The notes: generated by a model not told the origin, from the sequence alone. DNA of 64,000 nucleotides from Alkalispirochaeta sp. (GCA_965601925.1 OZ271854.1:4896001-4960000), one strand, 5' to 3'. Counted from the first letter of the stretch, positions 3,025-24,198 are shown. A program made the numbers and translations.

Positions 3025-3885
3025 ATGGACCGAACCGCGGCACCCGGCCACCGGGACCGGCGTTACGTGGACGAGGATCGCAATGCAGGCGTACAGGGAA
3101 CGGCGATCATTGCCGCGGACCGCAACGCCGTACAGGAGGAGCTGATACACCTGATCGAGGCCGGCGGCCTTGCGCCAAGTGCCGGCGACGACACGCAGCT
3201 GCGCCGGGCGGTAGAGGCGATCGCGGTACGCGAAGCGTTGGCGATGCCCCCGATCGGTACGATCTGGATGTACGACGGCGCCGGCTGGGTCGACAACGTG
3301 ACGCTCCCGGGCTGGTACGCCTGCATTCCGGAAAACGAAGACGGCGGTGCGTCCGGCCTCTCCTTCGGCATCGTGTCGATGGTCGACCGATTTGTGATGG
3401 GTCGTGGGAACGCGGCGGTAGGCGCGGTGGGCGGGACCAACTCATATCAGCTAACGGCGGGGCAGCTCCCTTCGCATACGCACACAATCAACCACGACCA
3501 TACGGCGTTCACGTCGGGGGGCGAGAGTAGGGATCATTCTCATTCGGTGAGTGGAAGTGTTAATGGCAGTGGCTCGCACAACCACTGGGACGGCTTTCGA
3601 CATTCTTACGGAAACTCCGGTGCGTATGTGTATGCAATGTCCGGTAATCAAGGAAGTATTGGAGTTACGTACTCAAATACAAGCTCCGTGAGCTACATGG
3701 CGAGAACATCATCCACGAGCCACTCCCACACTTGGTCCGGCAGCTCAGGCGGTCGCTCCGCCGGCCACACTCACGCGATAAACGTCCCGAACTACGCCGG
3801 TAACTCAGGCGGCACCGGCGGCGGCCAGACGATCGACAACCGTCCGGCCTTCTACTCGATGGTATTCATCAGAAAGTGCGTGTAG
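3025..3885 (+). CDS. Phage tail fibre / tail-collar protein (fibre D)
   Basis: Fibre-anchor N-terminus (NAVQEELIHLIEAGGLAPSAGDDTQL), collar-like PIGTIWMY...DRFVMG, multiple HxH motifs (HTH, HSH, HNH) and the typical ending DNRPAFYSMVFIRK; AGGGGAG RBS. Confidence 0.85.
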   Translation: MDRTAAPGHRDRRYVDEDRNAGVQGTAIIAADRNAVQEELIHLIEAGGLAPSAGDDTQLRRAVEAIAVREALAMPPIGTIWMYDGAGWVDNVTLPGWYACIPENEDGGASGLSFGIVSMVDRFVMGRGNAAVGAVGGTNSYQLTAGQLPSHTHTINHDHTAFTSGGESRDHSHSVSGSVNGSGSHNHWDGFRHSYGNSGAYVYAMSGNQGSIGVTYSNTSSVSYMARTSSTSHSHTWSGSSGGRSAGHTHAINVPNYAGNSGGTGGGQTIDNRPAFYSMVFIRKCV

Positions 3886-3904
3886 CGATTAAGGAGAGTC
3901 CACG

Positions 3905-4459
3905 ATGAAGGTGATTTCGATACTGAACAACGAGATGGTGATTCGCGAGCAGCGCCGGTCGGTCGATCGCGACGCTGACATGTTGACGGTGTATCTCTCG
4001 ATAGAGGCGAAGTTCGGCACGGTGGTAAACGCCGACACACGGCGAAAGCAGCGCCAACTCACCTTTCAGGTCGAGAAGGCGCGCCATCCGGAAGTGTGGG
4101 CGGCGGTCAAGGACGCGGACAACGGCGCGTTGATGGACGCGATAGCGGACCAATTGTCGGCGGTACTCCCGGTCGTCCGGCAACACCGCATGGAAGAGGA
4201 GAATCCCGTTACCCGCGAGGCGATCCAGGAGACGGTCGACGGGGAGGTCCTCTTCCGGTACCGCGACGAGGACGAGGCGGCGTTTAGCGCAGCCCGGGAG
4301 CGCACCGGACACGCACCGACGCAGGTACCGCAACCCAACAGCCAAGAGGCGGCGTTGGAGGAGCTCAAGGCGCAGTATCCTGTGGAGGAGATAGACGATA
4401 TGGTGAGCCATTTGCTCGCCATCGGCGTCGAGGCGCCGCTCCGGGCGGTCGGCGTCTAA
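3905..4459 (+). CDS. Hypothetical protein downstream of fibre D (possible fibre-associated chaperone)
   Basis: AAGGAG RBS; coupled to the next gene by a TAATG overlap; function inferred from position only. Confidence 0.65.
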   Translation: MKVISILNNEMVIREQRRSVDRDADMLTVYLSIEAKFGTVVNADTRRKQRQLTFQVEKARHPEVWAAVKDADNGALMDAIADQLSAVLPVVRQHRMEEENPVTREAIQETVDGEVLFRYRDEDEAAFSAARERTGHAPTQVPQPNSQEAALEELKAQYPVEEIDDMVSHLLAIGVEAPLRAVGV

Positions 4460-4821
4460 TGGACCTGCGCTACGGCAAGGCGCACCGACGCCGCATAGAA
4501 CGGCTAATACGAAAACACGGCCTCCCGGCCGGCGCGGAGGCGACCTATCAGCACGACGTGGCGGAGCCGATCGTGCTGGTATCGACGCCCGGCGACGGCA
4601 GGTCGGCCGGCCAGTTCCGGATGCTGACCCGAACGATGGAGCACGTGGAGTCCTTTCTCGTCAACGGGGGCGTGGTGAAGCTCCGCGCGTATTGCCCGTT
4701 GATTCGTCGTCGCTGCAAGGGCGAGAAGTGCCAGTGGTACGTCGTGCGAGGCTCTACCGGCGACTGTTCGACGCGCTGGAGCGCCGAGGCGGCGATGGTG
4801 AGCCTGGGGAGCGGGGGGTAG
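4459..4821 (+). CDS. Hypothetical Cys-rich protein
   Basis: TAATG overlap with the previous gene; CPLxxxxCxxxxCxW...C motif. Confidence 0.6.
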   Translation: MDLRYGKAHRRRIERLIRKHGLPAGAEATYQHDVAEPIVLVSTPGDGRSAGQFRMLTRTMEHVESFLVNGGVVKLRAYCPLIRRRCKGEKCQWYVVRGSTGDCSTRWSAEAAMVSLGSGG

Positions 4822-4915
4822 GACGTACCCGATCCCGTTGTCATCAGCACAGCGTGCCCATAGGAAGGTCCCAACCATACGTATTGACAAAAGGCACACA
4901 CACTACAGTTTCAAT

Positions 4916-5197
4916 ATGACCTTCAACTGGAGCGATGAAAAAAATGCGCTCTTGAAACAAACAAGAGGCATTTCTTTCGAAGAGATTGTCATCGCGATTG
5001 AGGAAGGACATGTTGTAGATGTGGTGCGGAATACAAAACGGTATCCGGATCAGCAAGTTTATCTGGTTGCGTGGCGCAGTTATATCTATGCCGTACCGTT
5101 TGTTCGCAACTCCGAAAAAGAAGAGATATTCTTGAAGATGATCTATCCGAGTCGGAAGTACACGAAACGGTACCGTTTCCCGGAGAGAGAACGATGA
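4916..5197 (+). CDS. BrnT-family (DUF497-like) toxin
   Basis: MTFNWSDEKNALLKQTRGISFEEIV...FLKMIYPSRKYTKRY; ATGA overlap with the antitoxin. Confidence 0.85.
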   Translation: MTFNWSDEKNALLKQTRGISFEEIVIAIEEGHVVDVVRNTKRYPDQQVYLVAWRSYIYAVPFVRNSEKEEIFLKMIYPSRKYTKRYRFPERER

Positions 5198-5493
5198 GCG
5201 ACCATACCGAAGAAACCGCGTTTCATTATTTGGACGACGAAGAGCGAGACGTAATGGAAAGCCTCGAACGGGGTGAATGGGAAACCGCGGAGGATGCGAG
5301 CACGGTAAAAGACGAGGCGGTACGGTACGCAAAGGCGACGCTGAAAAAGGACAAGCGCATGAATGTGCGCATAACGGAGCGCGATCTCCGTAATCTGAAG
5401 ATCAGGGCCGCCGAAGAGGGCATTCCATATCAGACACTGGTCACAATGGTCCTGCACAAATACGTAACGGGACAGCTGACCGAAACGCATTGA
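5194..5493 (+). CDS. CopG/BrnA-like RHH antitoxin
   Basis: KKDKRMNVRITERDLRNLKIRAAEEGIPYQTLVTMVLHKYV ribbon-helix-helix with the typical GIPYQTL motif. Confidence 0.85.
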   Translation: MSDHTEETAFHYLDDEERDVMESLERGEWETAEDASTVKDEAVRYAKATLKKDKRMNVRITERDLRNLKIRAAEEGIPYQTLVTMVLHKYVTGQLTETH

Positions 5494-5540
5494 GCCCAAA
5501 GACGCCGGTCGCCGGCGCGTCCAGTCCACGTGGAGGAACC

Positions 5541-6009: not shown

Positions 6010-7800
6010 TTACAACATTCTCACTCTCGTACGAAAACTCTCCGAGAACACGTAAGCCGCGCCACCGGACGGTATTGTCGAAGATTCATTGCGCGCTCCA
6101 ACGATCACATAGTCACCATTGACCGCCACACCCCAGCCAAATGAGGCACTTTGTGATGCTTCTGGGGCCAGTAGCTTCACTCCGGTCCGCCACGCGTTTG
6201 AGCTGCTGCGGCGAAACACATATGCCGTGCCAGCCCCCTCATATCCGACACTCTCGCCCCACGCTCCGATTATGAGACAGTCCCCGTCAATCGCTACATC
6301 ATGACCGAAACGATCTCCCACTTGTCCGCCCTCCGGCGTAACCAGCTTTGTCCCGGCATCCCATTCGTTTACACCAGTGCGCCGAAACACGTATGCGGTA
6401 CCAGCAGGTGGGTCTCCCGAGAGCGCGTTAGGAGCTCCTACAACGGCGTAGTTCCCTTGGATTGCCACACCCTCGCCGAAATAAGCCTGCGCTTGCGCGT
6501 CTGGCGCCACCAGTTTCACTCCGGCATCCCAGGTGTTCACGTCGGTGCGCCGGAACACGTATGCCGCGCCAGCGTTTACACCTCCCGCGGATTCTTGATG
6601 AGCCCCAACGATGACGTAGTCCTCGTGGATCTCTACGTCCTCGCCGAAACGGGCATCCGCTTGCGCATCTGGAGCCACCAGCTTGACTCCGGCATCCCAA
6701 GTGTTTACGTCGGTGCGCCGGAACACGTATGCCGCGCCAGCGCTGCTACCTCCGGCGTCCTCGTTGTGCGCTCCTACGACGACATAGTCCCCGTCGATTG
6801 CTATGGACCTTCCAAAACTGTCGCCGGGCTCGCGGTCCGACGCTACCAGTTTCACTCCGGCATCCCAGGTGTTTGCACCGATGCGGTGAAATATGTACGC
6901 GGCATTCCCAGTCTGAGCTCCAATGGCAATATAGTCGCCGTCTATCGCTACACTCCAGCCAAACAAGGCGTTCGGAAAGATGTCTGGCGCTGCCAGCTTC
7001 ACTCCTGTATCCCAGGTGTTTACGTCGAGGCGCCGGAACACGTACGCCGCACCAGAGTTGCTACCTCCGGCATCCTCTTGTGGAGCTCCTACGACCGCAT
7101 AGCTCCCACCGATCGCTACACTTCGACCGAAAATGTCTCCGGGTTCTGCGTCGAACGCAACCAACTTCGTCCCATCATCCCATTGGTTGGTAACTAAGGA
7201 TAACAAGACCGCAGAGATCGACGAATCGCGACTCTCCAGCGCACTATCGACTTCCGCATCGCTGTACACATCCAGTACACCTCGCGCCTCCGCGGCGTTG
7301 GCTGCTGCCATGAGACCTCGGGCATATGACGACGTGAGACTATGCATACTCATTGCTGTACCATCGCCGACCGCAAACAGAACGCTCCCGGGAGAAAGTG
7401 TCGCCATGATACCGGCGGTGCCGTCAATGGTGACCGTGTCGGTGCCTTCGTTCACGACGAAAAGGTACCGGCCCGGCCGCCCAATCGGCCCGTTGAGAGT
7501 CAGGGTCAACGGGGTACCGTTGGCGACACTAACAAGGAGGGATGAACGGTAGGCGCCAAGATCTATTGCCTGCGAAGTAGAAATCTCTACTTGATCTGCG
7601 ATCATCCGCCCGATAGCAGATTCCAACTGCGTATTGTCCGCTCCGCTTGGTATCAACCCCGCGTTCTCGATAACGTGTATTAGCTCGTCCTGAATCGCGT
7701 TGCGATCCTCGGCGGTGATCGCGGTACCCTGTCGGCCCGAGTTACGGTCCTCGTCGACGTAGAATCCGTTGTCGCTCCCGGGGGCGTTCGTGCGTCTCAT
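6010..7800 (-). CDS. Tail fibre (fibre C) with C-terminal FG-GAP repeat beta-propeller
   Basis: Same anchor class as fibre D (NAIQDELIHVIENAGLIPSGADNTQL), followed by seven repeats of FGxSVAIxGDYxVVGA...GAAYVF. Confidence 0.85.
   Translation of the reverse strand: MRRTNAPGSDNGFYVDEDRNSGRQGTAITAEDRNAIQDELIHVIENAGLIPSGADNTQLESAIGRMIADQVEISTSQAIDLGAYRSSLLVSVANGTPLTLTLNGPIGRPGRYLFVVNEGTDTVTIDGTAGIMATLSPGSVLFAVGDGTAMSMHSLTSSYARGLMAAANAAEARGVLDVYSDAEVDSALESRDSSISAVLLSLVTNQWDDGTKLVAFDAEPGDIFGRSVAIGGSYAVVGAPQEDAGGSNSGAAYVFRRLDVNTWDTGVKLAAPDIFPNALFGWSVAIDGDYIAIGAQTGNAAYIFHRIGANTWDAGVKLVASDREPGDSFGRSIAIDGDYVVVGAHNEDAGGSSAGAAYVFRRTDVNTWDAGVKLVAPDAQADARFGEDVEIHEDYVIVGAHQESAGGVNAGAAYVFRRTDVNTWDAGVKLVAPDAQAQAYFGEGVAIQGNYAVVGAPNALSGDPPAGTAYVFRRTGVNEWDAGTKLVTPEGGQVGDRFGHDVAIDGDCLIIGAWGESVGYEGAGTAYVFRRSSSNAWRTGVKLLAPEASQSASFGWGVAVNGDYVIVGARNESSTIPSGGAAYVFSESFRTRVRML
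6040..7180 (-). repeat. Intragenic ~58-codon tandem FG-GAP repeats
   Basis: Recurrent DNA such as ccggcatcccaggtgtt...cgtcggtgcgccggaacacgtatgccgcgccagcg at about 174-bp spacing. Confidence 0.85.
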
Positions 7801-8363
7801 AGCCCGTCCTCCTGGTCGTTACCGCACCGCATGACACCGCATACGCCGACGCCGCAGCGCCCGACGGAGCTGCCGGAGAGGGCGATTACGTTGAGCGTCC
7901 GCGCTACGTGCACCGGAAAGATGCGCCCCGCGATGCCGACGAGGCGCGCGTACTGGTCGACCGTCTCGACGTCGCCGTTCAGCCGAATCGAGAGTGGCCC
8001 CGTCTCTTCGATCAACACGCGCGAAACCTCGGGATTGTCGGCACGCGGAAATTCGATGGTAAGTTGTCGCTGCAGATACTCGAGGCTTTGCCCGCCCACG
8101 GCGGCGTTGGCGGCGCGTATGCGTTGCTTCATCACCTCTCGGTTTGTGTTGGGAGCGTACGCGACACCCAGCTCCTCGGCCCACTCGGGGATCGCCTCAT
8201 CGGCTCTCCCCGGGATCGATTCGTCCACGGCACCTCTGAGATAGGCGCGGACGCGGCCGAGAGACGCGGCAAGGGCGTCCAGGAGCGCCGACCAGTTGCC
8301 CCGGGCCCTCCAGGGTAGACCTGACGGTAAGAGCAGGCGCAGTACGCGTTTCATCGATTGCAT
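7797..8363 (-). CDS. Baseplate wedge protein, Mu gp48/YmfQ (DUF2313)-like, copy 2
   Basis: LRLLLPSGLPW...LLDALAASLGRV...ESIPGRADEAIPEWAEELG...GGQSLEY; lies between gp47 and a fibre. Confidence 0.8.
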   Translation of the reverse strand: MQSMKRVLRLLLPSGLPWRARGNWSALLDALAASLGRVRAYLRGAVDESIPGRADEAIPEWAEELGVAYAPNTNREVMKQRIRAANAAVGGQSLEYLQRQLTIEFPRADNPEVSRVLIEETGPLSIRLNGDVETVDQYARLVGIAGRIFPVHVARTLNVIALSGSSVGRCGVGVCGVMRCGNDQEDGL

Positions 8364-8372
8364 CGCTCCTCC

Positions 8373-9836
8373 TTATACGCTCGCCGTCGTGAAGGCGCCG
8401 AGCTTGGCAACCTCGACGGCGAAGGTGCCGCCGAGGTCTTCGGTCTTTAACTCGTATCCGGTGATGGAGCCGGGTTGATCGACGCGCTCGATCGTAAGCG
8501 AGGCGTAGCGCGCGCCGGCGTCGAAGACGACCTTGTGGAGCTCGGCGACGCTTATTACGTCGGTGGCGCCCTGCTCGTCGTCGTACTGGCGCGGGTAGCG
8601 CGACAGAAAGTAGGTACGCAACGCCTCATCCACCGATTGCAGGGTGGCACCGCTGCGCGTGTCCAACTGAAAGGAGTCGGCGACCACGTTAAAGACGACC
8701 TCGGTCACCGCGCGCGCCTCGACGCGTGCGCCGAGTGGGCGACGTTCGGTGGCCGAGACGTACGCCTCGACCTCGTCCAGCTTCACCGTATCGGGGACGC
8801 GATCGTTCTCGCCCTCCCCCACCAGCGGATAGACGTTGACCTGCCCCGGTGCCGGGGAGTACGCGAAGGCGCGAACCACCCCGGGTACCTCGAGCGCCCA
8901 CGCGACGTAGTCGGCAGCAGCTCCGCCCTGGGGACGGTCGCGACGGCGCTGCCGTACTCGGCGGCGAAACTCCTCGACCGTTTCGGCGTCCTCGCCGACC
9001 GTGGGGCGCAGAGCCTCCGGTATCTCCCACGCCGCGACGGCGGTCGCCGCGGCATCGACACCCGCCGGCGGCGCCGTCAACGATACCGTCTCGCCGGCAG
9101 GAATCGCCTCCAAGCGTTCCGGATCGACCGGGAGGAGTACCGCGACGGCGCGCCACACCGTTACCGGGTCGGCCGGGTCGCCGGTGGGCGCGAGCGCGAC
9201 GGTCTCCTCGACGCGATACCGGTGTTCGACCGGTTGGCCGTCGATTACTTCGCTGTAGGTGAGAAGATCTCCCGCCGGAACCGTTGCCGCACCGGAGCCG
9301 GTTATGCGCGCGGCGCTGCGCACGATGACGGTCGCGTCGCGCTCGACCCCGGTCATGGGAGTGACCAGAGAGACGACCTTGCCCGATCCCAGGGTACCGG
9401 CGTCGCCCGCCTCATCGGCTACGAGGGTAATTACGGCGCTCGGCGGCGCGCCGGCAGGCTCCGCATGAGCGACCAGGGTAACGTCGGCCTCCGTGTAGTA
9501 GGTGTTGCCGCCGAATCGGTAGGGCCTGCCAGCGGGGATGGTCGTTCCTGCAGCCCCGGTAACCACGGCGAAGCCGCGCCACGCTACCGCCGGCTTTGGG
9601 GTGAGGCCGTCTTCGGCGCCGCGCTCCACCAGCGCTTCGGCGTCGCAGGTGGCGACGAAGATCTGTCGCCTGACCCACAAACCGAAGCGGTAGAGGAGCG
9701 CCACCGCGCCCGCTTGGGCGGTCGCAAGGACGCGCCACACGGCGCGTGAGAGGAGCGGTGTTTGGGTACCCGTCGCCCCTTCGATATCGGCCAGGATGGA
9801 ATCGCGAATTTCGGTCACCGTCGGTATCGTCTTCAC
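8373..9836 (-). CDS. Baseplate J / Mu gp47 family protein, copy 2 (internally expanded)
   Basis: IPTVTEIRDSILADI...QIFVATCDAEAL...GEDAETVEEFRRRV...PQGGAAADYVAWALEVPGV. Confidence 0.9.
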   Translation of the reverse strand: MKTIPTVTEIRDSILADIEGATGTQTPLLSRAVWRVLATAQAGAVALLYRFGLWVRRQIFVATCDAEALVERGAEDGLTPKPAVAWRGFAVVTGAAGTTIPAGRPYRFGGNTYYTEADVTLVAHAEPAGAPPSAVITLVADEAGDAGTLGSGKVVSLVTPMTGVERDATVIVRSAARITGSGAATVPAGDLLTYSEVIDGQPVEHRYRVEETVALAPTGDPADPVTVWRAVAVLLPVDPERLEAIPAGETVSLTAPPAGVDAAATAVAAWEIPEALRPTVGEDAETVEEFRRRVRQRRRDRPQGGAAADYVAWALEVPGVVRAFAYSPAPGQVNVYPLVGEGENDRVPDTVKLDEVEAYVSATERRPLGARVEARAVTEVVFNVVADSFQLDTRSGATLQSVDEALRTYFLSRYPRQYDDEQGATDVISVAELHKVVFDAGARYASLTIERVDQPGSITGYELKTEDLGGTFAVEVAKLGAFTTASV

Positions 9837-10231
9837 GTGAGCGCTCCTCTCAGGGCGTCCCAGTTGTGGGCGAATCGATACGTGTCGGCGCCTTGATGGA
9901 CGGTTACCGTAATCTCCAGGGCGGTCGCAGAGACGATGCGTGCCACGACGTCAATCCGATCCGCCACCTTCTCGTCGGTCATCCACGCGAGCGCCGCCTT
10001 GGCCGCCTCGATCGCGTCGAGGCGCAGTTGATTGGTAAGGGTGCCGGAGAGCAGTTTCGGCAGGCGCGAGTCGTAGCGCTCCGCAGGCGACGCGATCTCA
10101 TTTCCCCACCACGATTCGGTAAAGAGGGAGAGATAGACCGCGTTGTCCAGCCCGCCGGTAAGGCGCGGTTCGCCGTTCTCGATAACAATGTCCGCCCCGT
10201 CGGGCGTGGGATGAAGGTATAGATCTGACAT
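9833..10231 (-). CDS. Mu gp46-like baseplate protein
   Basis: GLDNAVYLSLFT...WWGN...SRL...AKAALAWM. Confidence 0.85.
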   Translation of the reverse strand: MSDLYLHPTPDGADIVIENGEPRLTGGLDNAVYLSLFTESWWGNEIASPAERYDSRLPKLLSGTLTNQLRLDAIEAAKAALAWMTDEKVADRIDVVARIVSATALEITVTVHQGADTYRFAHNWDALRGALT

Positions 10232-10234
10232 ACG

Positions 10235-10855
10235 CTAATCCGTTGTAACCTTTGACGATTCAGACCCAGAGATGTCGATCGATGTCGCGGGGGCAGCCCC
10301 GGCTCCGAAGCCGCTCGTACCGCCACCGGTGGTCACTCCGCTGTGCGCGTGACCGGTAATCGCACCGGCAATCGCGGCGTCGACCGATCTTTGAAACAAA
10401 TCGAGCGCGTTCTTCAACTCCTCGTACGTTACCAACGGCTTTCCGCTCCCGTCGCTGCCCAACTTGATCGTCTCGGCGTTCACCGTAACGTTTCCGCCGC
10501 TCACCGTTATCTCCCCGGAACCCCCGTCGGCGTCGACGGTAATCGACCCGTCGGTGCCGAAGCGCGCCGAAGCCTTTACCGCCTCCCCCGCCTCGTCGGT
10601 GGAGTAAACCACCAGCTCGCCGGGCTCGACCGGCACCTCGATCTTGTAGTTGTGCACCGCAATGACGATGCGTCCACCCTGGCCGACCGGCACCGAGAGG
10701 GCGCTGTCCCCGGGCGTGGGTGATGACGCGATCCCCGGTGGCGCGTAGAGCTCCGCGGTGCGCTCCTGACTGTCGGCGCCGGTAATCTGTACCACCACGT
10801 TGGGGGCGGTCGCGGTGCCGCGCGTGTCAATCGCGGCGCCGGTAACCTCGTTCAT
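10235..10855 (-). CDS. Baseplate spike, Mu gp45-like
   Basis: PPGIASSPTPGD...GELVVYS OB-fold/beta-helix pattern and C-terminal HAHSGV metal-binding tip; lies between gp44 and gp46. Confidence 0.8.
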   Translation of the reverse strand: MNEVTGAAIDTRGTATAPNVVVQITGADSQERTAELYAPPGIASSPTPGDSALSVPVGQGGRIVIAVHNYKIEVPVEPGELVVYSTDEAGEAVKASARFGTDGSITVDADGGSGEITVSGGNVTVNAETIKLGSDGSGKPLVTYEELKNALDLFQRSVDAAIAGAITGHAHSGVTTGGGTSGFGAGAAPATSIDISGSESSKVTTD

Positions 10856-10860
10856 GTGTC

Positions 10861-11931
10861 CTATCCCCGCCACGGCAACGCTCCCGGTTTGATATCGGCG
10901 TCGTCGTACGCCTCGGGTATCGATAGTTCCAAATCGGCCTCCTGTCCCTCCTCGGCGTCCATGCGGAGGGTGACGCGACTCACAATGAAGCGCGCCGAAC
11001 GGTAGATCATCGCCCCCGGTGAGGTAAGACGCACGATTTCGCCGGGCTCCCACAGATCGCGACCGTGGGTCCACCCCGAGACGGTGACGTAGAGTCGGAA
11101 CGAGTCGATGAGGGCGCGATTGCGCTCAAAAGTCGCCGCCGCGTTGATGTCCTGCGTCTGCTGCGTGAGACGCCGCACGCGGCGCCCCCGCACCTCGACT
11201 CCGAGCCGCTCGGGATCGCTTGCTGCGGCACTCACGATGGGGACCGAGTCGGTGTGCCCGTAGACCACGTACTCCTGAAAGCGCTTTGTCGCATCGAAGG
11301 AAGAGGAGATCATGCGCATGGGCGACAACCCCTCCTCCAGCTCCACCGTTGCGCGCCGCCGACTACTGAAGCGTACGAAGGAGAGCGACCCGTCGCGTTG
11401 CGGTGAAGCAAAGAGTCCGTGCCCGGCGGCGAGGCCCGAAAGCACTTCATAGACCGTGTCGCCCGCCTCGAACTCGACGATGGGCAGCCGCGGCGTGTCG
11501 GGGCGCGCGACGACGCGGTGCGGGTGTGCGAGCTCGCGCGCCACGGTGTTGAAGGTCACATCTTGGAACTCGTAGCCGCGCCCCGGCCCCCCGGCGCTCC
11601 AGTCCAGGAGCACGCCGCTCTTCCCGCGCCCCTCCACGGAGAGGGAGCGCTCGTCCCCCGCGACCTCCGTCGTCAAACGCTCGACGTAGCCGGTAAGCAC
11701 CACCTCGTTGTCGATGAATATCCGCACCTCCGCAGGGGAGAAAGGTACGAAGCGTGCACGATTAACGGCTGTAGGGTCCCAGTCCAGGGTGAGACGGTAC
11801 GCGTCGGCGCACGAGTCGATAGCGCGGGTGACGACGACGCTCGACCACCCCGTGACTCGCTCTCGGGTCTCCGATAGTCCGACCCAGACCTCGGGCGTCC
11901 CTTCGACCGATGCGGGAGTGCGGTCAGACAT
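10861..11931 (-). CDS. Baseplate hub, Mu gp44 (gpP)-like
   Basis: GWSSVVVTRAID...VLTGYVE...VEGRGKSGVLLD...RFQEYVVYG...TVSGW...LWEPG. Confidence 0.9.
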   Translation of the reverse strand: MSDRTPASVEGTPEVWVGLSETRERVTGWSSVVVTRAIDSCADAYRLTLDWDPTAVNRARFVPFSPAEVRIFIDNEVVLTGYVERLTTEVAGDERSLSVEGRGKSGVLLDWSAGGPGRGYEFQDVTFNTVARELAHPHRVVARPDTPRLPIVEFEAGDTVYEVLSGLAAGHGLFASPQRDGSLSFVRFSSRRRATVELEEGLSPMRMISSSFDATKRFQEYVVYGHTDSVPIVSAAASDPERLGVEVRGRRVRRLTQQTQDINAAATFERNRALIDSFRLYVTVSGWTHGRDLWEPGEIVRLTSPGAMIYRSARFIVSRVTLRMDAEEGQEADLELSIPEAYDDADIKPGALPWRG

Positions 11932-12109
11932 CGCGCTCCTCGTCCGCCGGCTTCTCCCGCGCCGCCCACCTGGCTGAGCCCGCCTCGCGGTTGCGGAGCT
12001 CCGCCGCCAATCGGTAACGTTGCAGCGTCTTTCCGAAGATCGCCTCGTCTACCTCCACGAAACGTTCGACCTCATTGGTTTCCGCGTCATAGAGTTCGAC
12101 CGTCCTCAT
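11924..12109 (-). CDS. Small hypothetical protein after fibre B (possible fibre chaperone)
   Basis: 61 aa, overlapping both neighbours (translational coupling). Confidence 0.55.
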   Translation of the reverse strand: MRTVELYDAETNEVERFVEVDEAIFGKTLQRYRLAAELRNREAGSARWAAREKPADEERDV

Positions 12110-14254: not shown

Positions 14255-14259
14255 AGCTC

Positions 14260-16034: not shown

Positions 16035-17348
16035 TCAGACATAGTAGCGGACCTCGCGTCCTCGCGGCACGAGCAAGAGCTCGTCGCCCGCGAGTTCGTT
16101 GTACTCGATGCATTCGTCCAACCGATCGAGGCTGCCGAAGAGCTCCACGGCGAGATGAATCGGCGTCGTGTCGCCCTCCAGTACTACGGTGCGCTCCGTG
16201 GGAAGCGCCAAAGCTCCATCCACGAGGGCACCGACCGCGGTAGCCATGATCGCCGCACCGTCGCGCGAGATGTCGTACGTCGGCACCCCCATGCCCTCGG
16301 CGAGGGCGTTCATCTCCCCCGCCAAAGACCGCAACTCTTCCACGGCGTTAACCGCCTCGGCGCGGGTACGAATCGGACGCTCCCCCTCGCCACCGCCGTC
16401 CAACCCCGCAACCGCCGCCTCGCTTACCGCCCCCTGGAGCGCGTAGATCTGCGCGACGGACAAGAGTCCGACCGTCCGGGCGGAGGCGATCTCATCGGCG
16501 TTCATGCGCCGGCGCTCGGCCTCCGTTGCGATATTGCGGCCGACGATCGCCGCTGCGCCGGCGGTCGGAGAGGTCAGCGCCTCGTGCAACTGGGAGAATA
16601 CCGCGCGATAGCCCGCGATCTTCTCCCGGACGTTGGTAATAGTTGTGGCGGGAATGCGATAGAGGCGCAAAAAGCTCTGGGCGAGGGCAACGGGGCTCCG
16701 GATCAGCCCCTCGATGTCGCGACTCATCGCAACGACCGCCGACTCCAACCCTCCCCGTACATCCTCGGCGAGGCCGGCGATCGCCGCAAGCTCGCGCCGC
16801 GCCGCCTCGAGTCCGCCCGCCACACTCTCGCGAAGGGCGGTCAGAGCCGACGGGTCGATGATCTCGGCGGAAGCCAAGGACGAAACGACGCTTTCGGCCA
16901 ACCTCGTGATACCGGCGGCGACCGCCTCATCGGCGGCGATGCGCGAGATAAGGTACTCGAACTTGCGCGAATCGGCGGCGACGAACTCCACCGAAAAGAG
17001 GGCACGCCCCACGCCGTTAAGAAAATGTTCGCTCTGTTGCCACGAGACCGGAAGGACTCCCTGAACGCCCCACCGCGGATGGTCGAGTACGCCCGGCCCC
17101 GCCTCATCCAACGCCGCGGCGAACCGATCCGCCTCCCGATCGTAATCGGGCCCCGAGATGTAACAGGTGACCGGATAGCGCTTGATCGCCTCTCCCAGAT
17201 CCTGGATACCGCCGGAGTTTTCGCCGACGTACTCGCTCACCACCGTGTTGCGGCCCCCGGAGCGCGTCAACTCGTCGAACTGCAGCACGAAGGTCTCGCC
17301 CGAGGCGGTGGTGTAGCGGAACGTTCGCAGGCGATCCGTGGCGCTCAC
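16035..17348 (-). CDS. Mu gpN (gp43)-like 'DNA circularization' / tube-initiator protein
   Basis: GGRNTVVSEY...IQDLG...GPDY...ALDEAGPGVLDHPRWG...FSVEFV N-domain; LysM-like C-terminus (PIHLAVELFG...N...LLVPRG). Confidence 0.88.
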   Translation of the reverse strand: MSATDRLRTFRYTTASGETFVLQFDELTRSGGRNTVVSEYVGENSGGIQDLGEAIKRYPVTCYISGPDYDREADRFAAALDEAGPGVLDHPRWGVQGVLPVSWQQSEHFLNGVGRALFSVEFVAADSRKFEYLISRIAADEAVAAGITRLAESVVSSLASAEIIDPSALTALRESVAGGLEAARRELAAIAGLAEDVRGGLESAVVAMSRDIEGLIRSPVALAQSFLRLYRIPATTITNVREKIAGYRAVFSQLHEALTSPTAGAAAIVGRNIATEAERRRMNADEIASARTVGLLSVAQIYALQGAVSEAAVAGLDGGGEGERPIRTRAEAVNAVEELRSLAGEMNALAEGMGVPTYDISRDGAAIMATAVGALVDGALALPTERTVVLEGDTTPIHLAVELFGSLDRLDECIEYNELAGDELLLVPRGREVRYYV

Positions 17349-17731
17349 GGTTTTGCCGTCCCGTAACCGGTATATATGGTGACGCCGTGGGCACTCCCCC
17401 TCCGTCGGAGGCGCGTTCCGGCGGGCAATGCCACGTTAATGTCGACGACGTGCCGCTCCTCGTTGTAGACCCGCGACTCGACGGTGCGGCCGACGCCTTC
17501 TCCATCACCGCCCGTGACTTTCGGTAGACGTACGCCGGCTGCATCGGTCGCGTCGCCCGGGGCGCCGGCGCGTCCGCTCGACGCGGGGCTCTCGTGGGAG
17601 GGCGACGGCGAGGAGGTCCCGGCCGCGTCCGACGAGGCGCTCGGCGTCGTACCGGCCCCGGACTGCTCCACGGGCGGCACCTGCCCGGCGGCGCGATCGA
17701 ATGCGTCGAAGACGGTACTTACCGCCGACAT
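17345..17731 (-). CDS. Miniature / internally deleted tape-measure-like protein (128 aa)
   Basis: Sits at the TMP position; TMP-like ends (VSTVFDAFDR...; VDINVALPAGTRL...GVTIYTGY) flank an S/A/G/P/T low-complexity linker; GTGA overlap with gpN; weak RBS. Confidence 0.5.
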   Translation of the reverse strand: MSAVSTVFDAFDRAAGQVPPVEQSGAGTTPSASSDAAGTSSPSPSHESPASSGRAGAPGDATDAAGVRLPKVTGGDGEGVGRTVESRVYNEERHVVDINVALPAGTRLRRRGSAHGVTIYTGYGTAKP

Positions 17732-17768
17732 CGAGGCGCTATCGTACGGCCCGGTATGGTACTCCGGC

Positions 17769-17954
17769 TTATTGGCGGATATTGACACGTTGCAAGACCT
17801 CCGCATCGCGACGGTAGAAGTCCATCGCGATCTCATACCACCACCTGAGATCGCGTACGCTCATCGCGGCGATCTCGGAGGGTGGAAATCCAAAACGGTC
17901 GGCGACGGTGCCCATGAGTTCACGGAGCTCTCCGTCGCCGATTAGGCGAAAAAA
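17769..17954 (-). CDS. Frameshifted C-terminal extension of the tail assembly chaperone (gpT/GpE'-like)
   Basis: -1 frame ORF ...VADRFGFPPSEIAAMSVRDLRWWY..., matching the P2 GpE'-type FxxxPSExxxMxxxxLxxW pattern. Confidence 0.7.
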   Translation of the reverse strand, partial: FFRLIGDGELRELMGTVADRFGFPPSEIAAMSVRDLRWWYEIAMDFYRRDAEVLQRVNIRQ

Positions 17955-18466
17955 CCGGTTAGCGCCCCCAAAACCCGCATGTCCCGACGATAGATGCGCT
18001 CGGCGATTCCGAGCGGCCAACTCGTATCGAGGACCGTTATGACGCGAAGGGTCAGCTCCGTCGCCTGTGCGAGCTCGACCTGCATGTCGTCCCCGCCCCC
18101 ACGGGAGACGAACATGTTGCGGCCGATCTTTCTGAGATCCGCCGCCGTTGGCTCCCGCAGAACGACCGTGTCGAAGGACGCGCCGTTGTCGAGGGTAAAG
18201 GGCCGCTGTAGACGGTAGAGGAGCGTGCCCTCACTGGCGTCGTAGTCGACCCACCCCTTGCGGATCGCCGCAAGCACGATCGGCCGCTGGCCCGCGGCGA
18301 GCAGCCCCCACTCGCGCTCCATCGACGCCAACCACTGCTCGGCAACCTCACCGGCCACGACATCGTCGGTCGAATCGTAGTCCGGGTTTCGGTGCTCTTC
18401 GTGAGCGTCGCGGGCCGCGTCCGACATTGTCCCGTTCGACCCGCGATCGATCTCCGTTCTATTCAC
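17942..18466 (-). CDS. Phage tail assembly chaperone (Mu gp41-like)
   Basis: Follows the tube; LQRPFTL...VVLREPTAADL...RDMRVL motif. Confidence 0.78.
   Translation of the reverse strand: MNRTEIDRGSNGTMSDAARDAHEEHRNPDYDSTDDVVAGEVAEQWLASMEREWGLLAAGQRPIVLAAIRKGWVDYDASEGTLLYRLQRPFTLDNGASFDTVVLREPTAADLRKIGRNMFVSRGGGDDMQVELAQATELTLRVITVLDTSWPLGIAERIYRRDMRVLGALTGFFA
17948..17954 (-). promoter_or_regulatory. Programmed -1 ribosomal frameshift heptamer T TTT TTC
   Basis: ACC GGT TTT TTC GCC TAA at the end of the chaperone gene; the -1 frame stays open to 17769. Confidence 0.75.
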
Positions 18467-18485
18467 ACGATCTCTCCGGGACGCA

Positions 18486-18869
18486 TTACACCGGTGCGAA
18501 CTGTACGCCGCGCATGGAGATTCCCAACGTTCCGTCGCGTCCGCTATAGGAGATATCGCCCTCGACCTGGAGCTCCCCCATCCACGTCTCGCCGGTGGCC
18601 AGGGTGAGGGTTACCGGCGTCGGCGCGCTATGGTCGGCGACCGCCTGGAGGGCGGCGAAGTCCTGCGTCTCCGGGTCGATGCTAATCGTCAATCCGTCGA
18701 ATCCGCCGAGTTTGCGCGTCTGCGTCGTGTGCATACCGCCGTTGCCGGTCGGTGCGTTGGTGTTGGTGAAGCCTGCGCGAATCAAGGTGACGCTCGTCTG
18801 GGGCGCCGGCGCATACTCGCGTCCGTCGATCGTAAGTTGGCGGATGTCACCGCCCCGTACCGTTGCCAT
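18486..18869 (-). CDS. Tail tube protein (Mu gpM-like)
   Basis: 127 aa, beta-rich, TAATG-coupled to the sheath; VTLTLATGETW...DGTLGISMRG; GGAGG RBS. Confidence 0.8.
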   Translation of the reverse strand: MATVRGGDIRQLTIDGREYAPAPQTSVTLIRAGFTNTNAPTGNGGMHTTQTRKLGGFDGLTISIDPETQDFAALQAVADHSAPTPVTLTLATGETWMGELQVEGDISYSGRDGTLGISMRGVQFAPV

Positions 18870-20359
18870 TAGTTCGTACCTCCAACGAGAAAAGCCCATT
18901 CCACCTTCGCCGCCAGGATGCGTAGGCCCGCCGACGGAATGTCCGGTATGAGAAGATTGACGCGTCCCGGGTTGGCGGCGTCGATCTCCGCGGTGACGCC
19001 GGCGGCCACCGTATCGCGGTCGGCGGTAAGTCCCCGTGCCGACCAGTCGTTGACGAGCGCCAAGGCGTAGGCGACGACGGTGTTGGGTCTGACCGCGTAG
19101 GTCGGAGCCGGGGGCGCCGAGTCGGCGACGATCACCGCCTGCTGAAAGGGCGCCGACGAGAAGGTGATATCCAGCGCGTTAATCTTGAACTGCAGGTTGG
19201 GAATGATCACTGCAAAGCGCCAATCGTCGGTCGGCACGCCGGTATCGGTGGTGGTGCGCGTGGTGACCGTGTCGCCGATCGTCACACCGCCGTCGGGCAG
19301 GTTATAGGTGTGCGAGCCGCCGGCCTTTACCAACTGGTCGCGCACGGCGTAGGTAAGATCGTTCGCCCCCCCGGCGAGGATGCCCGGGATGCGATTGCCG
19401 CGCACCGGTACGCCCGGTCGCGAACCGTGAGCACCGGCCCACATACCGGCAAAGGCCGGCGCGATCTCGAAGGGAGCGCTCGGCGAACCCAGAACCGGAA
19501 CGGTGACGGTAAACTCCGAATTACGCCCGCCCAAAAAGGAGGTGTACTGGTCGATCGTACCGGTGAATCCGACGATCTGAACGCACATGCGCTTGACCCC
19601 CGGTGCCTGGCGGTCACGACACGCCGTCTCCACCGCAGAAATTGTCGCCCCATCGTCGTAGGGGTTTGCGATCTCGGAGTACCACGTGTCGCCGAGGCCG
19701 GCGAGCGCCGCGGTAAGATCGGGGGCACCGGCGCCGCCGGTCATCTTGTTGGTTGCCGGTACGGTGACCGAGATATCGGTCGGCAACACATCGGTCGACC
19801 GCAGGCCCATACGCACATCGATCTGGTTACCCGAGAGTCCCGCCCACTTCGCGGCAAGGGTAACCGTACCGTCCGCGGGCGCGGCGTCGGCGGCGCTCAC
19901 CGGTAGCCTGGGGTCGGCGTTCACCGCGTTCACGAGGGAGGTTCCGATAGCCGCCGCCGTGTCACCGGAGGCGACCCCGACCGCGACGCGCCGTCCCGCG
20001 ATATAGATCGCCACCTCGCCGGCTCCGGCCGCCGTGCCGACTACGGTAACGGTCGCCGTCGCCGAGGCGGTTCCACCCGACACCGGAAGGGCCGACACGC
20101 GGTAGCCGCCACCGTAGCGAAAGACCGCCTCGGCCATGAGCGCGAGTAGCGACCCCTCGCCGTAGCGATCGCGGGCGTCGGCGACGTCGCGCAGAGCCTG
20201 CGGCACGTCGACCGTCGGCGTCAAAGCGGTGTCGAATTGACCGATCAAGAGAACATGGTGCTCGAACGCGGGAGACCCGCCCGCGCGATTGACCGCCTCC
20301 TGCTCGACAAAGGTCGCCGAAGCGGCGGCGGTGGCGGGGGTCAGCGTAAAACTAATCAT
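18869..20359 (-). CDS. Contractile tail sheath protein (Mu gpL-like)
   Basis: MISF...VLLIGQ...YGEGSLLALMA...IYIAGRRV...DPRLPVSA...VTLAAKWAGLSGNQID...GGAGAPDL...NPGRVNLLIP. Confidence 0.93.
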   Translation of the reverse strand: MISFTLTPATAAASATFVEQEAVNRAGGSPAFEHHVLLIGQFDTALTPTVDVPQALRDVADARDRYGEGSLLALMAEAVFRYGGGYRVSALPVSGGTASATATVTVVGTAAGAGEVAIYIAGRRVAVGVASGDTAAAIGTSLVNAVNADPRLPVSAADAAPADGTVTLAAKWAGLSGNQIDVRMGLRSTDVLPTDISVTVPATNKMTGGAGAPDLTAALAGLGDTWYSEIANPYDDGATISAVETACRDRQAPGVKRMCVQIVGFTGTIDQYTSFLGGRNSEFTVTVPVLGSPSAPFEIAPAFAGMWAGAHGSRPGVPVRGNRIPGILAGGANDLTYAVRDQLVKAGGSHTYNLPDGGVTIGDTVTTRTTTDTGVPTDDWRFAVIIPNLQFKINALDITFSSAPFQQAVIVADSAPPAPTYAVRPNTVVAYALALVNDWSARGLTADRDTVAAGVTAEIDAANPGRVNLLIPDIPSAGLRILAAKVEWAFLVGGTN

Positions 20360-20976
20360 ACTCTTCCCTCCAATTGATACAATCCGGACCAACGGCCCGT
20401 ATCGATGTGTATTTCATTCAGCGGAACGCCCTGGACCTCGCCCACGTCCCACACCAGTTCAACGGTCATAACGACCCGCCGCGTCCGGGAGGGGTGCACG
20501 CCGTGGCGCGGGTCGTCCCAAGAGCTCGGATCGTTCCACGAGATCGTGACCTGCGGTTGCGCAAGCCTCCCGACCACGCCGATGGGCAAGTCAAAGTCCC
20601 AACCTCCCGCGGTCCACAAAGCACGAATCACTTGGGTCACGAGGTAGCGCAGGCGCGCCCCGACCGCCGTGTCCGCCTCCGCAGGGGTGGGAAAGGTTGC
20701 GCCGGTGGGAACCGCCGAGACGCAGTCGAGGTAATAGGCCGCCTCGTAGGCCATGGCGCGCGCCGAGCTCGCCTCACCGCCCCGAAACTTCAACTCCGCG
20801 GCGTAGACGAAAACACTCGCGGGATCGTCGGAGGTGGCGCCCACGTCGGTGGTGTTGTCGGAACGCACCACGAATGCACGGCCCGGGTCCGCCGCCGCCT
20901 CGTCGGCCGCAAACGACTCCAGGCGCGCCACCACGCGATCGAACACGATATCGAAGACCTCGCGTACGTCGCTCAT
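20356..20976 (-). CDS. Putative tail terminator / completion protein
   Basis: Immediately upstream of the sheath with an ATGA overlap; alpha/beta pattern compatible; assignment by position. Confidence 0.55.
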   Translation of the reverse strand: MSDVREVFDIVFDRVVARLESFAADEAAADPGRAFVVRSDNTTDVGATSDDPASVFVYAAELKFRGGEASSARAMAYEAAYYLDCVSAVPTGATFPTPAEADTAVGARLRYLVTQVIRALWTAGGWDFDLPIGVVGRLAQPQVTISWNDPSSWDDPRHGVHPSRTRRVVMTVELVWDVGEVQGVPLNEIHIDTGRWSGLYQLEGRV

Positions 20977-21016
20977 ATCCTCACCCATCGGCGGGGGCAC
21001 TGGCGGCGCGAGGCGA

Positions 21017-21277: not shown

Positions 21278-21585
21278 GATTCGATATTACTCTTTCGATA
21301 TAAATATTTTCTCTGTAAAAGAAGCTCTTTGAGAAGACAGTGCTTGTCAACAGCAATATTATTTCTCTTGAAAAATAATGATTGAAACAAAGCTTGAGAA
21401 ATAATCACAACCTTACACTATCCTTAGTTTTTGACCGTGTCAAAGAGAAATCACCCCTTTTCAATGAATTCTTATTTATACAACTCGCAATATCCAACTG
21501 CTTGACAGGCCGCCCGAGTATGCCCGATTCTCGAAGCTGGTAGTCCGACGACAGCCGGCCGCAACGATGCAGCCGCGGAGGCTTT

Positions 21586-24198
21586 ATGAACCGCAGACCC
21601 GGCCAAAACCGCAATCGCCGCTCGCAACCACCGCTGTACGTAGACATCGACGTTCGTACGGAGCGCCGCTCCGCCGCCGGTGGTGGCGATGTCACGAAGA
21701 GGCGTCAAGACGCCGCAAGCCCCTCCGCGAAAACGGAAGCGGTACGTGACACATCCGCCCTCCAATACATCGTGAAACGCCATACCGGCGGAACCGTTTC
21801 GGGCTGGGTCGTGGTGCGCCACACCGACGGATCGATCGCCGTCGACCGCCTGGGCCGATACGGCGACGACATCACCGTCATCGACCGCGTTGACGGCATA
21901 ACCATGCGCTACCCCGATTCGGGAAGAGAACATCCCGCCGCCTTCGTCGCCCGTGTATTGGGAATCGACACTCGAGTCGTCGCGACCTCGCTTAAACGCG
22001 CAGGGTGGGAACGGCTCGACTACGACGGTGGGTGGTCGAATGCGCCCGACGGCGAGCCGTGGATTCTCGAAGGGTCGGATCACGAAGCGGCAGATGCGGC
22101 ATTTCGACGCATCGGCGGAGCGAGTACCTCGGGTAGGGACAACGCCCCCGACTACTCGCCCTCCGGCGAAACCGTGACGAAGCGCGGCATTCCCCTTAAC
22201 TCGCCGCCAAACACATTCGATAGTGAGGTCGCCCGCTCCCGGTCGCAATACGCCGGCCTCAAGGCGACCTATCGCACCCGCACGGGCGAGGAGCATCGTC
22301 GTTTCGGCGAGGAGATCATGGCGCGCGAGGACTCTCAACGCATCGTCGGTCGCGCCGGAAAGAGCGATCGACGCGGCACGGCCCGCACCGTGTCGGGAAC
22401 ACGAGAGCAACCGAGCGGCTCGCGGTCCGACGCGAACGGTGGGGACGATATACCGTCCTCGCCCACACAACGCCGCGATCCGGTCGACCTCGAGCGCGAA
22501 GCCTTTACAGTCGCTACCGGCTGGGTCGTCGTGCTGCGAACGAGCGGGCAGGTAATTGTCGACCGTAGAACGAGTTCCGGTAACGATGTCACGGTTGTTG
22601 ATGCGGTGCGCGGCACGACGGAGACGCATCGCTATCCAGGCAGCGGGAGTCGGACGGGGTTTATCTGTACGATTCTCGGACTTCCGTTCGATCCGACTCA
22701 CCCATTAGACAATCCCGTTAATCAAGGTTTAAGCGGAGCCGGTTGGACTTGGCATTCGGAGACCGATACGTGGACCAACTCACGGTCCGATACGGCGTGG
22801 ACATTATCCCGCATCCAACTCGATGAGATGCAGGTACAATCCTACTCCGCCGAGCAGGATGGGGGGGTAGGAGCAGAAGAGTTATCATCTTTAAAAATAG
22901 ATATCGCAATCCGGAACGCTCTCGCCGGCCTCGAAAGAGTAAGCTTCTTTAACGCAGGATCTACGGATCTTCACGAATTCGGAAGAATGCTCGCAAACGA
23001 ACCGAATCAACATACCGTTGAGCTCATTTCTGATCTGGCAAATCAACGGTCTCAGGAAGCTTCCGAGTACTTATTGTCTAGCGATACCGAGTCTGAAATC
23101 GGCGTCTGGAACTACGAGATTGCAAACTATGAATACCACCGATCACAGTTTTACCTCACCCTCGTAGCGGTCTTTCGAGGAACCATACCACCGAGTACTG
23201 CCGCGCCCGCGCGTCAAACGCTGGATATCGCATACCAGCGCCTCTCTTCGTTTCTACGGGACCGCAATCAGAACCCATTTCACGCTTCAGATGCGTCCAC
23301 GACTTTGAATACCTTGCACTATCGAGAAGCATCCTCAAGGCGAAACATCGAGACAGACTCCCCACCGGAGATTGACATTGTCATGGCGACGATCGGTGAG
23401 TTGCGAAGACTCATAACCCTGAGTGAACCCTTAGATGCGGAGTTCGAGGATCCGAACGATCCAAATGTCCAAAGACGAGTCGAAGCGGTTAACTTTCGAA
23501 TAGTCACGATGATGCTGGTACTACTCAGTACAGCGATCGTGAATCGTCACGGTGAGCTCCGACGATCATTGATAAGAGTATTTCCAGTGTCTCTCCGGTC
23601 GCACGAGCACTTGGATGCATTTCGTGAACTGGTAATACGACGAAATCCCGTAGACTACGAAAACTACCGAAGGCGCACCAACCAGAGGCTTGCGCGGATA
23701 GCACTGACCGCAGCACTAAGTTTGGCATTGGCCAAGGTGGCTATCGCGTCGAGTCTCATAAAAACTGTTAGCGTATCCGGTGCCTTGATCGGTGGAACTG
23801 TCGCATGGACGGGAACCGCATTAGGAGGAGGGTCTCGAGAGCAACGAATTCAAGCTGCCGTAATCGGGGCGATACTTGGCTCGTTCAATTTCGTACCGGC
23901 TCAAAACATGCCTGGACTAATGAGCTATCTAAGCCAAATTGGAATCGAGGCGGTGACCGGTGCCCTATCGTCTCTTTTTGGTCAAGTTTTTAGCGGAGCA
24001 GGTTCCATTGATTTTGACCATATAGGCGCGTCAGCTCTCCTTTCCGGCATAGCTAGCGCCACAAACTTTTCCAGTCTATTTCGTCATTTAGCCGATAATC
24101 GGATCATAATTTTAAATGAATTGGGAAAATTCACAGAATTAACATCGAATGTTATAGCTTCTAGAATCTTATTTCTCATGAGTGAAAGCCGAGAATGA
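21586..24198 (+). CDS. 870-aa hypothetical protein with duplicated N-terminal domain and Gly/Ala-rich hydrophobic C-terminus (candidate effector)
   Basis: GGAGG RBS; long open frame; internal repeat GWVVV..T.G...VDR....G.D.TV.D.V.G.T..RYP; several hydrophobic helices at the C-terminus. Confidence 0.75.
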   Translation: MNRRPGQNRNRRSQPPLYVDIDVRTERRSAAGGGDVTKRRQDAASPSAKTEAVRDTSALQYIVKRHTGGTVSGWVVVRHTDGSIAVDRLGRYGDDITVIDRVDGITMRYPDSGREHPAAFVARVLGIDTRVVATSLKRAGWERLDYDGGWSNAPDGEPWILEGSDHEAADAAFRRIGGASTSGRDNAPDYSPSGETVTKRGIPLNSPPNTFDSEVARSRSQYAGLKATYRTRTGEEHRRFGEEIMAREDSQRIVGRAGKSDRRGTARTVSGTREQPSGSRSDANGGDDIPSSPTQRRDPVDLEREAFTVATGWVVVLRTSGQVIVDRRTSSGNDVTVVDAVRGTTETHRYPGSGSRTGFICTILGLPFDPTHPLDNPVNQGLSGAGWTWHSETDTWTNSRSDTAWTLSRIQLDEMQVQSYSAEQDGGVGAEELSSLKIDIAIRNALAGLERVSFFNAGSTDLHEFGRMLANEPNQHTVELISDLANQRSQEASEYLLSSDTESEIGVWNYEIANYEYHRSQFYLTLVAVFRGTIPPSTAAPARQTLDIAYQRLSSFLRDRNQNPFHASDASTTLNTLHYREASSRRNIETDSPPEIDIVMATIGELRRLITLSEPLDAEFEDPNDPNVQRRVEAVNFRIVTMMLVLLSTAIVNRHGELRRSLIRVFPVSLRSHEHLDAFRELVIRRNPVDYENYRRRTNQRLARIALTAALSLALAKVAIASSLIKTVSVSGALIGGTVAWTGTALGGGSREQRIQAAVIGAILGSFNFVPAQNMPGLMSYLSQIGIEAVTGALSSLFGQVFSGAGSIDFDHIGASALLSGIASATNFSSLFRHLADNRIIILNELGKFTELTSNVIASRILFLMSESRE

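Follow-up and report, generated by a model that had tools for sequence, protein, structure and literature searches.

The R-type syringacin of Pseudomonas syringae is an independent co-option of a Mu-like phage tail that has lost its replication, capsid and packaging genes; no holin was recognised in it, and lysis in trans has been suggested (Hockett 2015, PMC4542187). In the Mu tail itself, the wedge consists of gp46, two gp47 and gp48 (PMC11915804). Extracellular contractile injection systems (eCIS; Afp, PVC, MAC and AlgoCIS) are also headless, and several subtypes carry two J-type proteins (Chen 2019, PMC6899500). Here, we analysed a 64,000-nt stretch of Alkalispirochaeta sp. (GCA_965601925.1 OZ271854.1:4896001-4960000; hereafter the window, in whose numbering positions are given) from a genome assembled as a single 5.05-Mb contig and 96.7% complete. 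It holds an operon for a Mu-type contractile tail and, divergent from it, a gene for an 870-aa protein. The reading we tentatively favour is that the locus encodes a domesticated, headless and very short contractile particle whose source was a Mu-tailed spirochaete phage and whose cargo, directed against other bacteria, is most likely the 870-aa protein. A functional machine under selection is probable; given such a machine, the protein is fairly likely to be its cargo.

The locus differs from each of the described systems. Syringacin has another phage donor and phylum, chitinase/spanin and regulatory genes and a conserved trpE-trpG site, and no shrunken tape measure, doubled J or cargo appears in the portion of its published account considered here (PMC4542187). 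With phage Mu and spirochaete phages L004-L025, the window shares a tail gene set equivalent to gp37 and gp39-gp49 (Zhou 2025, PMC11915804), and its sheath is 38-56% identical to those of the spirochaete phages. Unlike the locus, those phages have heads, an adaptor, a C39 peptidase, tape measures of 421-624 aa and one J, in the order gp43-44-45-46-47-48-fibre. N-terminal cargo loading, which we infer here, would be a further likeness to the eCIS. These systems have a T4-type tube, a fused VgrG-like spike, the Afp15 ATPase and the Afp16 cap, whereas the window has a Mu-type tube, separate gp44 and gp45 and no ATPase (PMC6899500). Neither an Afp1/5 tube of the T4-gp19 type nor a fused Afp8 spike was found (the tube falls in PHROG 4699), and none of the open reading frames (ORFs) of the locus matched the Afp15 AAA+ ATPase or the Afp16 cap in Pfam. 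PF05943, the sheath (VipB/TssC) of type VI secretion (T6SS), had no match in the genome in a search whose control was recovered; the membrane complex was not searched separately. Judged from its genes, the tail would work like an R-type tailocin or an eCIS. No spirochaete tailocin or contractile injection system was found in the literature searched, which largely excluded subscription papers and supplementary tables, so that eCIS or tailocin survey tables could list the locus. A natural tailocin with a shrunken tape measure or double baseplate was not found there either, the one co-mention being a caveat on distant taxa. The tape-measure-related effector described in Streptomyces davawensis represents a different arrangement.

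Losses from a Mu-type phage

None of the ORFs scanned matched a head, terminase, integrase, lysis or AAA+ gene (Pfam, PHROG). Across the genome, no gpT capsid, GpA ATPase, PF05876, PF03237 or PF04466 terminase, lambda portal or Mu F was detected in searches whose controls were recovered, and PF06074 (Portal_Mu) gave no match in a search without a positive control. The single portal of the genome sits in a self-contained HK97-type prophage. When 401 ORFs from 22 related phage loci were compared with the genome, only ClpP host genes, a prophage methylase, an SSB-like gene and one membrane protein matched outside the window. The absence of capsid, portal and terminase, which the initial annotation had noticed in the window and proposed to follow through the genome, holds for matching genes elsewhere in the genome in these searches, and a split prophage was rejected. 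Its description of the locus as free of lysis genes holds for the insert; the trait is not unique, since syringacin has no recognisable holin, and three phage-type amidases lie elsewhere in the genome. As in R-type tailocins, a complete contractile tail gene set occurs without genes for a capsid, packaging or replication; the insert was not found to contain the lysis and regulatory genes that are linked to such tailocins.

An alignment of 53 sheath relatives drew loci from Spirochaetaceae metagenome-assembled genomes (MAGs), IMG/VR and JGI. The tallies cover 66 of the 84 loci, with some duplicates kept; L026-L043 (25-34% identity) and 21 more distant, phylum-level sheath matches fall outside them. 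The phage relatives are of the ordinary kind: they encode a GpA terminase, a lambda-type portal, a C39 peptidase, a Clp protease and a gpT capsid. A capsid gene was present in all 27 loci with at least 2 kb upstream, one J follows gp44 in all 17 loci that reach the fibre, and the tape-measure ORF was 421-624 aa long in 19 of 19 measurable loci. From this comparison, the locus differs by at least four events: the head block was lost; the 111-aa head-tail gene was lost and o86 kept; the middle of the tape measure was deleted; and a second J/gp48/fibre module stands before gp44. In the phage relatives, the small gene o86 stands between the capsid gene and the 111-aa gene; the window has lost both of these neighbours and kept o86.

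The initial annotation had missed the tape measure, which is present as a shrunken gene of 128 or 147 aa with both ends kept. Hidden Markov models (HMMs) from 18 phage tape measures matched its N-terminal motif (independent E value, iE, 1e-3) and its C-terminal domain (iE 2e-10), and an HMM search found no second copy of the C-terminal domain elsewhere in the genome. Mini tape measures of 118-147 aa occur in three other clusters (P0077-79), the four clusters being 67-77% identical. Between clusters, the N motif is 93% and the C-terminal part 77-81% identical, and the linker is 37-65% identical with in-frame indels; the tube is 98-99% identical among close relatives. The Mu tape measure has 690 aa for 30 rings (PMC11915804) and that of AlgoCIS 526 aa for 120 nm, or 0.229 nm per residue (bioRxiv 10.64898/2026.05.27.728243). 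Scaling from these two predicts a tail of about six sheath rings, 29-34 nm long.

Sheaths 76-80% identical to that of the window form one long-branch clade with it (support 100). In a quick IQ-TREE version of the J tree, Ja paired with P0090 and Jb with P0144 (support 100 each). The sheath P0002, the J proteins P0090 and P0144 and P0082, a homologue of the 870-aa protein, are each on two contigs from the same sources, the longest of 345,583 bp. P0077 (MI724_15285) lies three tags after the sheath MI724_15270 of a Spirochaetales MAG, and P0079 reports the same contig size, 4,595, as a tube 98% identical to that of the window. Co-location in these relatives was judged from matching contig sizes and accession order, and proteins were compared, not their DNA; DNA of the close clade was not found in IMG/VR, JGI and GTDB scans. 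On this basis, the derived traits (mini tape measure, two J, the 870-aa gene at the head position) appear to recur in a small diverged clade. The distinct architecture claimed in the initial annotation is borne out to this extent: it differs from that of the phage relatives and seems to be kept in diverged ones. The supposed spirochaete host also agrees with orthologues 89-96% identical in a MAG labelled Spirochaetales.

These data bear on whether the locus is a decaying prophage remnant, or what is left of an unusual phage with two wedge sets from the start, in which neutral deletions were simply inherited. Its presence across congeners and the order is patchy, it lies beside a tRNA in an insertion hot spot, and it has no regulator or lysis gene. 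Close relatives were compared by proteins, with their upstream DNA outside the comparison. The third-codon-position GC content (GC3) is 0.73-0.81 in the operon and 0.61 in fibre D, against a genome median of 0.73. This host-like composition, once read as a sign of domestication, is no discriminator, as a similar GC3 is seen in the genome's intact HK97-type prophage. Decay would nevertheless have had to leave 17 coupled genes without a stop or frameshift and to spare the reading frames and both tape-measure ends while the head, the adaptor and the middle of the tape measure were lost in no fewer than three separate events. Moreover, the tube was held at 98% while the linker fell to about 40%, and in a pattern-based search neither the mini tape measure nor the N-terminus of the 870-aa protein was found in IMG/VR viral contigs. 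We consider a remnant quite unlikely.

A second headless contractile tail is present in the genome (G000:C1:153,048-165,366, corresponding to L074:3048-15366; minus strand). It is of the DUF3383/E217 type, from a different phage family, lies directly after the host Fpg and topoisomerase genes and has a 463-aa tape measure and an amidase between the spike and wedge genes. A search of 98 other genomes of the order did not find its sheath. It likewise keeps a post-capsid small gene, and the neck genes that follow this gene in its phage relatives have been lost. That two independent headless tails share one retention pattern favours selection over chance decay. The post-capsid small gene, kept in both, may cap the open end.

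The 870-aa protein

The protein beside the operon had been labelled an orphan. The label does not hold, as two full-length homologues were found among 1.84 billion representatives (890 aa, 56% identity; 884 aa, 41% over the N-terminus). The three full-length members have a common N-terminus and diverge beyond it. P0081 ends in an M23 peptidase (E 1e-25), P0082 in a GxSxG segment like that of the T6SS lipase effector 7UBZ (E 1e-4), and residues 508-581 of the window protein resemble an Rhs C-terminus (E 2e-12), with hydrophobic helices also in its C-terminal half. Along the window gene, GC3 drops from ~0.7 to 0.24-0.58. As far as these sequences go, the layout fits the polymorphic-toxin template of a conserved N-terminal or pre-toxin part and recombined C-terminal toxin domains, in which PVC-delivered proteins are often reported without immunity genes (Zhang 2012, PMC3482391). 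It differs from the systems described there in a repeat domain outside Pfam and NCBIfam, in having no PVC-metallopeptidase and in its proposed carrier, a Mu-type tail (PMC3482391). The toxin-like nature of this protein and the conserved mini tape measure are the two strongest clues, and neither had been seen in the initial annotation.

A ~100-aa domain occurs twice in the protein; in spirochaete proteins of ~3,000 aa, the same domain stands just before the variable C-terminus. Three polymorphic-toxin-like genes of ~3,100 aa are present in the host genome (G000:C1:1325000-1348400, 4143000-4161700 and 4314000-4324700). Two of these loci carry spare C-terminal cassettes and immunity-like lipoproteins, and one spare cassette matches the HMM of the repeat domain (iE 4e-6). 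Relatives of the giant proteins in G626 and G681 fall in no Pfam or NCBIfam family; TIGR04388, which we had presumed to describe the giant toxins, gave no match in NCBIfam. The repeat domain itself is matched by no Pfam or NCBIfam model. Its structural model is confident (predicted local distance difference test, pLDDT, 85); no structural match is clear, the best being winged-helix-like (Z 3.3), and Foldseek gave none at E<=0.001. The model of the whole protein offered only generic helical bundles, and the Atlas leads (DUF637/PT-TG) stayed below 0.9, with nothing for the repeat domain. Descent of its N-terminus from a displaced piece of the tape measure was rejected (hhalign probability 0.3%). 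Visual inspection of the end of P0081 suggested a C39-like motif, which neither BLAST nor Pfam supported.

It could be argued that the tail is functional but free of cargo, a short particle that acts mechanically like an R-type tailocin or as an adhesin, with the 870-aa gene an independent polymorphic-toxin cassette in the slot. All the evidence for selection on the tail (short tape measure, J tree, conserved tube) suits this explanation equally. R-type tailocins need no cargo; clusters with multiple fibres or two particles and one lysis cassette are known (PMC12090994); the AAA+ loader, which AlgoCIS is reported to require for cargo (bioRxiv 10.64898/2026.05.27.728243), is missing; and the region collects passengers. 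Two observations speak for cargo instead. The diverged homologue with 41% identity over the N-terminus lies on a contig of the same size as diverged tail genes. In addition, the 870-aa gene has a strong ribosome-binding site of its own, and the protein needs another export route because it lacks both a visible signal peptide and the N-terminal body, ~2,500 aa long, that the host toxins have. A cargo-free particle is unlikely in our estimate.

Gene order and insertion site

The minus-strand operon runs intact from 21277 to 6010, most junctions overlapping or lying within 60 nt, in the order o86, terminator, sheath, tube, chaperone, mini tape measure, gp43/gpN, Ja, gp48a, fibres B and C, the 61-aa ORF, gp44, gp45, gp46, Jb, gp48b and fibre D (Table 1). 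The cluster is compact (~18 kb). The listed tail genes, their strands and their mostly coupled translation were confirmed by Pfam, PHROG and ORF calls, as was the Mu type of the tail. The solved chain nearest to its sheath is 9KHY, which we take to be Mu gp39. The operon does start at 21277, and its first gene is o86. The terminator-like gene has no match in Pfam, PHROG or NCBIfam and is assigned by its position and its identity to the phage gene.

Table 1. Positions of the tail genes, their neighbours and the host boundaries in the window
Feature	Position	Strand	Evidence or remark
tRNA-Met	2709..2782	-	left host boundary; insert starts on its 5' side; adjoins TPR gene in 9/10 congeners fetched
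Fibre A, own unit; N-terminus 65% identical to fibre D	3025..3885	+	PHROG tail fibre, E 7e-11
Two ORFs (184 and 120 aa), coupled to fibre A and perhaps serving fibre assembly	3905..4821	+	no convincing family
BrnT-like/CopG-like toxin-antitoxin pair, low GC3, passenger	4838..5493	+	Pfam E 0.012 and 9e-7
Fibre D: phage-fibre N-terminus and FG-GAP repeats like those of host lipoproteins	6010..7800	-	
gp48-like wedge protein b	7797..8363	-	PHROG 203; orthologues 89-93%
Baseplate J/gp47 paralogue b (Jb), 487 aa, internal insertion	8373..9836	-	PF04865; sister of P0144
gp46 wedge protein	9833..10231	-	PF07409, E 1e-12
gp45 spike, apex HxH motif	10235..10855	-	
gp44 hub	10861..11931	-	PHROG 177, E 9e-58
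61-aa ORF coupling fibre C to hub gene	11924..12109	-	fills gap between fibre C and gp44
Fibre C	12106..13137	-	PHROG 9777
Fibre B, 41% identical to fibre C	13178..14254	-	PHROG
gp48-like wedge protein a	14260..14886	-	PF10076, E 6e-9
Baseplate J/gp47 paralogue a (Ja), 370 aa	14865..15977	-	PF04865; sister of P0090
gpN/gp43 tube initiator	16035..17348	-	PF07157, PHROG 184; role as reported in PMC11915804
Mini tape measure: N-terminal motif, ~50-aa linker, C-terminal domain	17345..17788	-	147 aa from 17788, 128 aa from 17731
Tail assembly chaperone, -1 slippery site GGTTTTTTC, GT-type extension	17769..18427	-	PF10109
Tube	18486..18869	-	PHROG 4699; 98-99% in close relatives
Mu-type contractile sheath	18869..20359	-	PHROG 165, E 7e-91; 9KHY closest among solved chains (E 5e-68)
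Tail terminator	20356..20979	-	position; 23-31% identity to its positional counterpart in phage relatives
o86, small gene after major capsid gene in phage relatives	21017..21277	-	HMM from 9 phage genes: top genome match, E 1e-4
AT-rich divergent spacer, former place of head genes	21278..21585		between operon and 870-aa gene
870-aa protein, candidate cargo	21586..24198	+	two copies of ~100-aa domain, then foreign-GC helical/hydrophobic C-terminal half
Insertion scar, 80% copy of 3' end of neighbouring cyclase gene	24333..24417		
GAF-cyclase, PQQ-repeat and SH3 proteins; further inserted genes, low GC	24956..29344		flanked by a 112-bp 97% copy of TPR gene 3' end
TPR gene	29393..32191	-	right host boundary (synteny with congeners)

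The 184- and 120-aa ORFs beside fibre A have no homologue in the phage loci fetched. One small ORF accompanies the BrnT/CopG-like pair in the stretch (4838-5816) that separates the fibre A unit from the end of the operon. Fibre D (6010-7800) and the fibre of the second tail (G000:C1:153048-154943) share a segment, 39% identical over 115 aa. This segment and the likeness of the fibre D tip to host lipoproteins suggest that fibre tips may have been recruited from the host genome. A TTTGAC-N3-GTCAAA palindrome in the divergent spacer (21430-21444), the only copy in the genome, is a candidate operator. A regulatory motif common to the spacer, the leader of fibre A and the second tail was sought and rejected, only short AT-rich words being shared.

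Synteny at nrdR and tRNA-Met, a comparison proposed in the initial annotation, set the limits of the insert. Because nrdR, tRNA-Met and the TPR gene are contiguous in nine of the ten congeners fetched, 2783-29392 is an insert between the latter two; in the tenth congener, three unrelated genes occupy the site. Host genes do bound both sides, as first described, with tRNA-Met at the left and the TPR gene at the right; the cyclase, PQQ-repeat and SH3 genes on the right side are non-core and belong to the insert. Duplicated 3' ends of neighbouring genes surround the low-GC genes (26598-26709 and 29395-29506, 97%; 24333-24417 and 24966-25050, 80%), which suggests repeated insertion at gene ends. 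An assembly artefact is an unlikely origin of the locus: a 19,920-bp Logan contig, probably of the same sample as the source, is colinear with 6713-25500 without a single difference and at even depth.

Proposed working of the particle

If the particle functions as we favour, both units would be driven divergently from the AT-rich spacer. The gp43, gp44, gp45 and gp46 proteins and the wedges would assemble as in Mu, and the mini tape measure would set the sheath at about six rings. The two wedge/fibre sets could either form a mixed Ja/Jb baseplate or give rise to two types of particle that differ in their targets. The 870-aa protein would load through its N-terminal region without an AAA+ ATPase. 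Release would follow lysis in trans, by the amidase of the second tail or by the HK97-type prophage. Contraction would then deliver the cargo into the target bacterial envelope, the site of the peptidoglycan and lipid targets of the domains found in its homologues.

The HK97-type siphoprophage appears complete (G000:C1:3695656-3731000), with an integrase-like gene, terminase, portal, 773-aa tape measure and amidase. A stand-alone phage-type amidase lies amid host genes (G000:C1:4262089-4262763) and is 60% identical to that of the second tail. The resident prophage, the lack of a lysis gene and the very short predicted length could also indicate a device that works inside or against its own cell, in cell death or anti-phage interference, or a tail that is supplied to the heads of other elements or taken over by them. 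Cytoplasmic injection systems that kill their producer have been described in Streptomyces. Four fibres with variable tips imply outside targets instead. The head-tail adaptor is gone, the prophage has its own tape measure and tail, and no membrane-anchor gene was recognised. We regard this as the least probable of the explanations considered.

Several observations weigh against a selected, cargo-carrying particle. Searches of 16 congeners (78-97% complete) did not find the sheath in any of them, and among 98 other genomes of the order just one gave a match, a 28% relative. With the site empty in nine of the ten congeners fetched, the element is therefore lineage-restricted or mobile and not a genus trait. 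The initial annotation had held that absence from close relatives together with lack of expression would point to a recent remnant, and the first of these is what we found. As to conservation at one locus, a trait of tailocins, none of the 16 congeners gave the sheath, but a conserved clade is seen among MAG and Logan proteins. In the diverged relatives, the tail traits are linked through contig sizes and accession order, and no mini tape measure was found from the 345,583-bp contig. The locus has no loading ATPase or lysis gene, and at ~30 nm the tail may not be long enough to cross an envelope. For the C-terminal half of the 870-aa protein there is no family, and the structural model is poor (pLDDT 35). 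Downstream of the gene, there are only the scarred stretch and a 97-aa ORF with a signal peptide, and no obvious immunity gene. As the insert gathers unrelated passengers, the protein might be a mere passenger.

From sequence, then, we propose a headless contractile injection system. A more far-reaching claim, which we hold to be doubtful, is that spirochaetes independently invented a cargo-injecting extracellular contractile system from a Mu-type tail, ~30 nm long, with a two-ended tape measure, a two-module baseplate and ATPase-free loading through a host-toxin domain. If the particles exist, they would provide a natural test of the shortest possible contractile machine, of ATPase-free cargo loading and of the repeated turning of phage tails into effector syringes.

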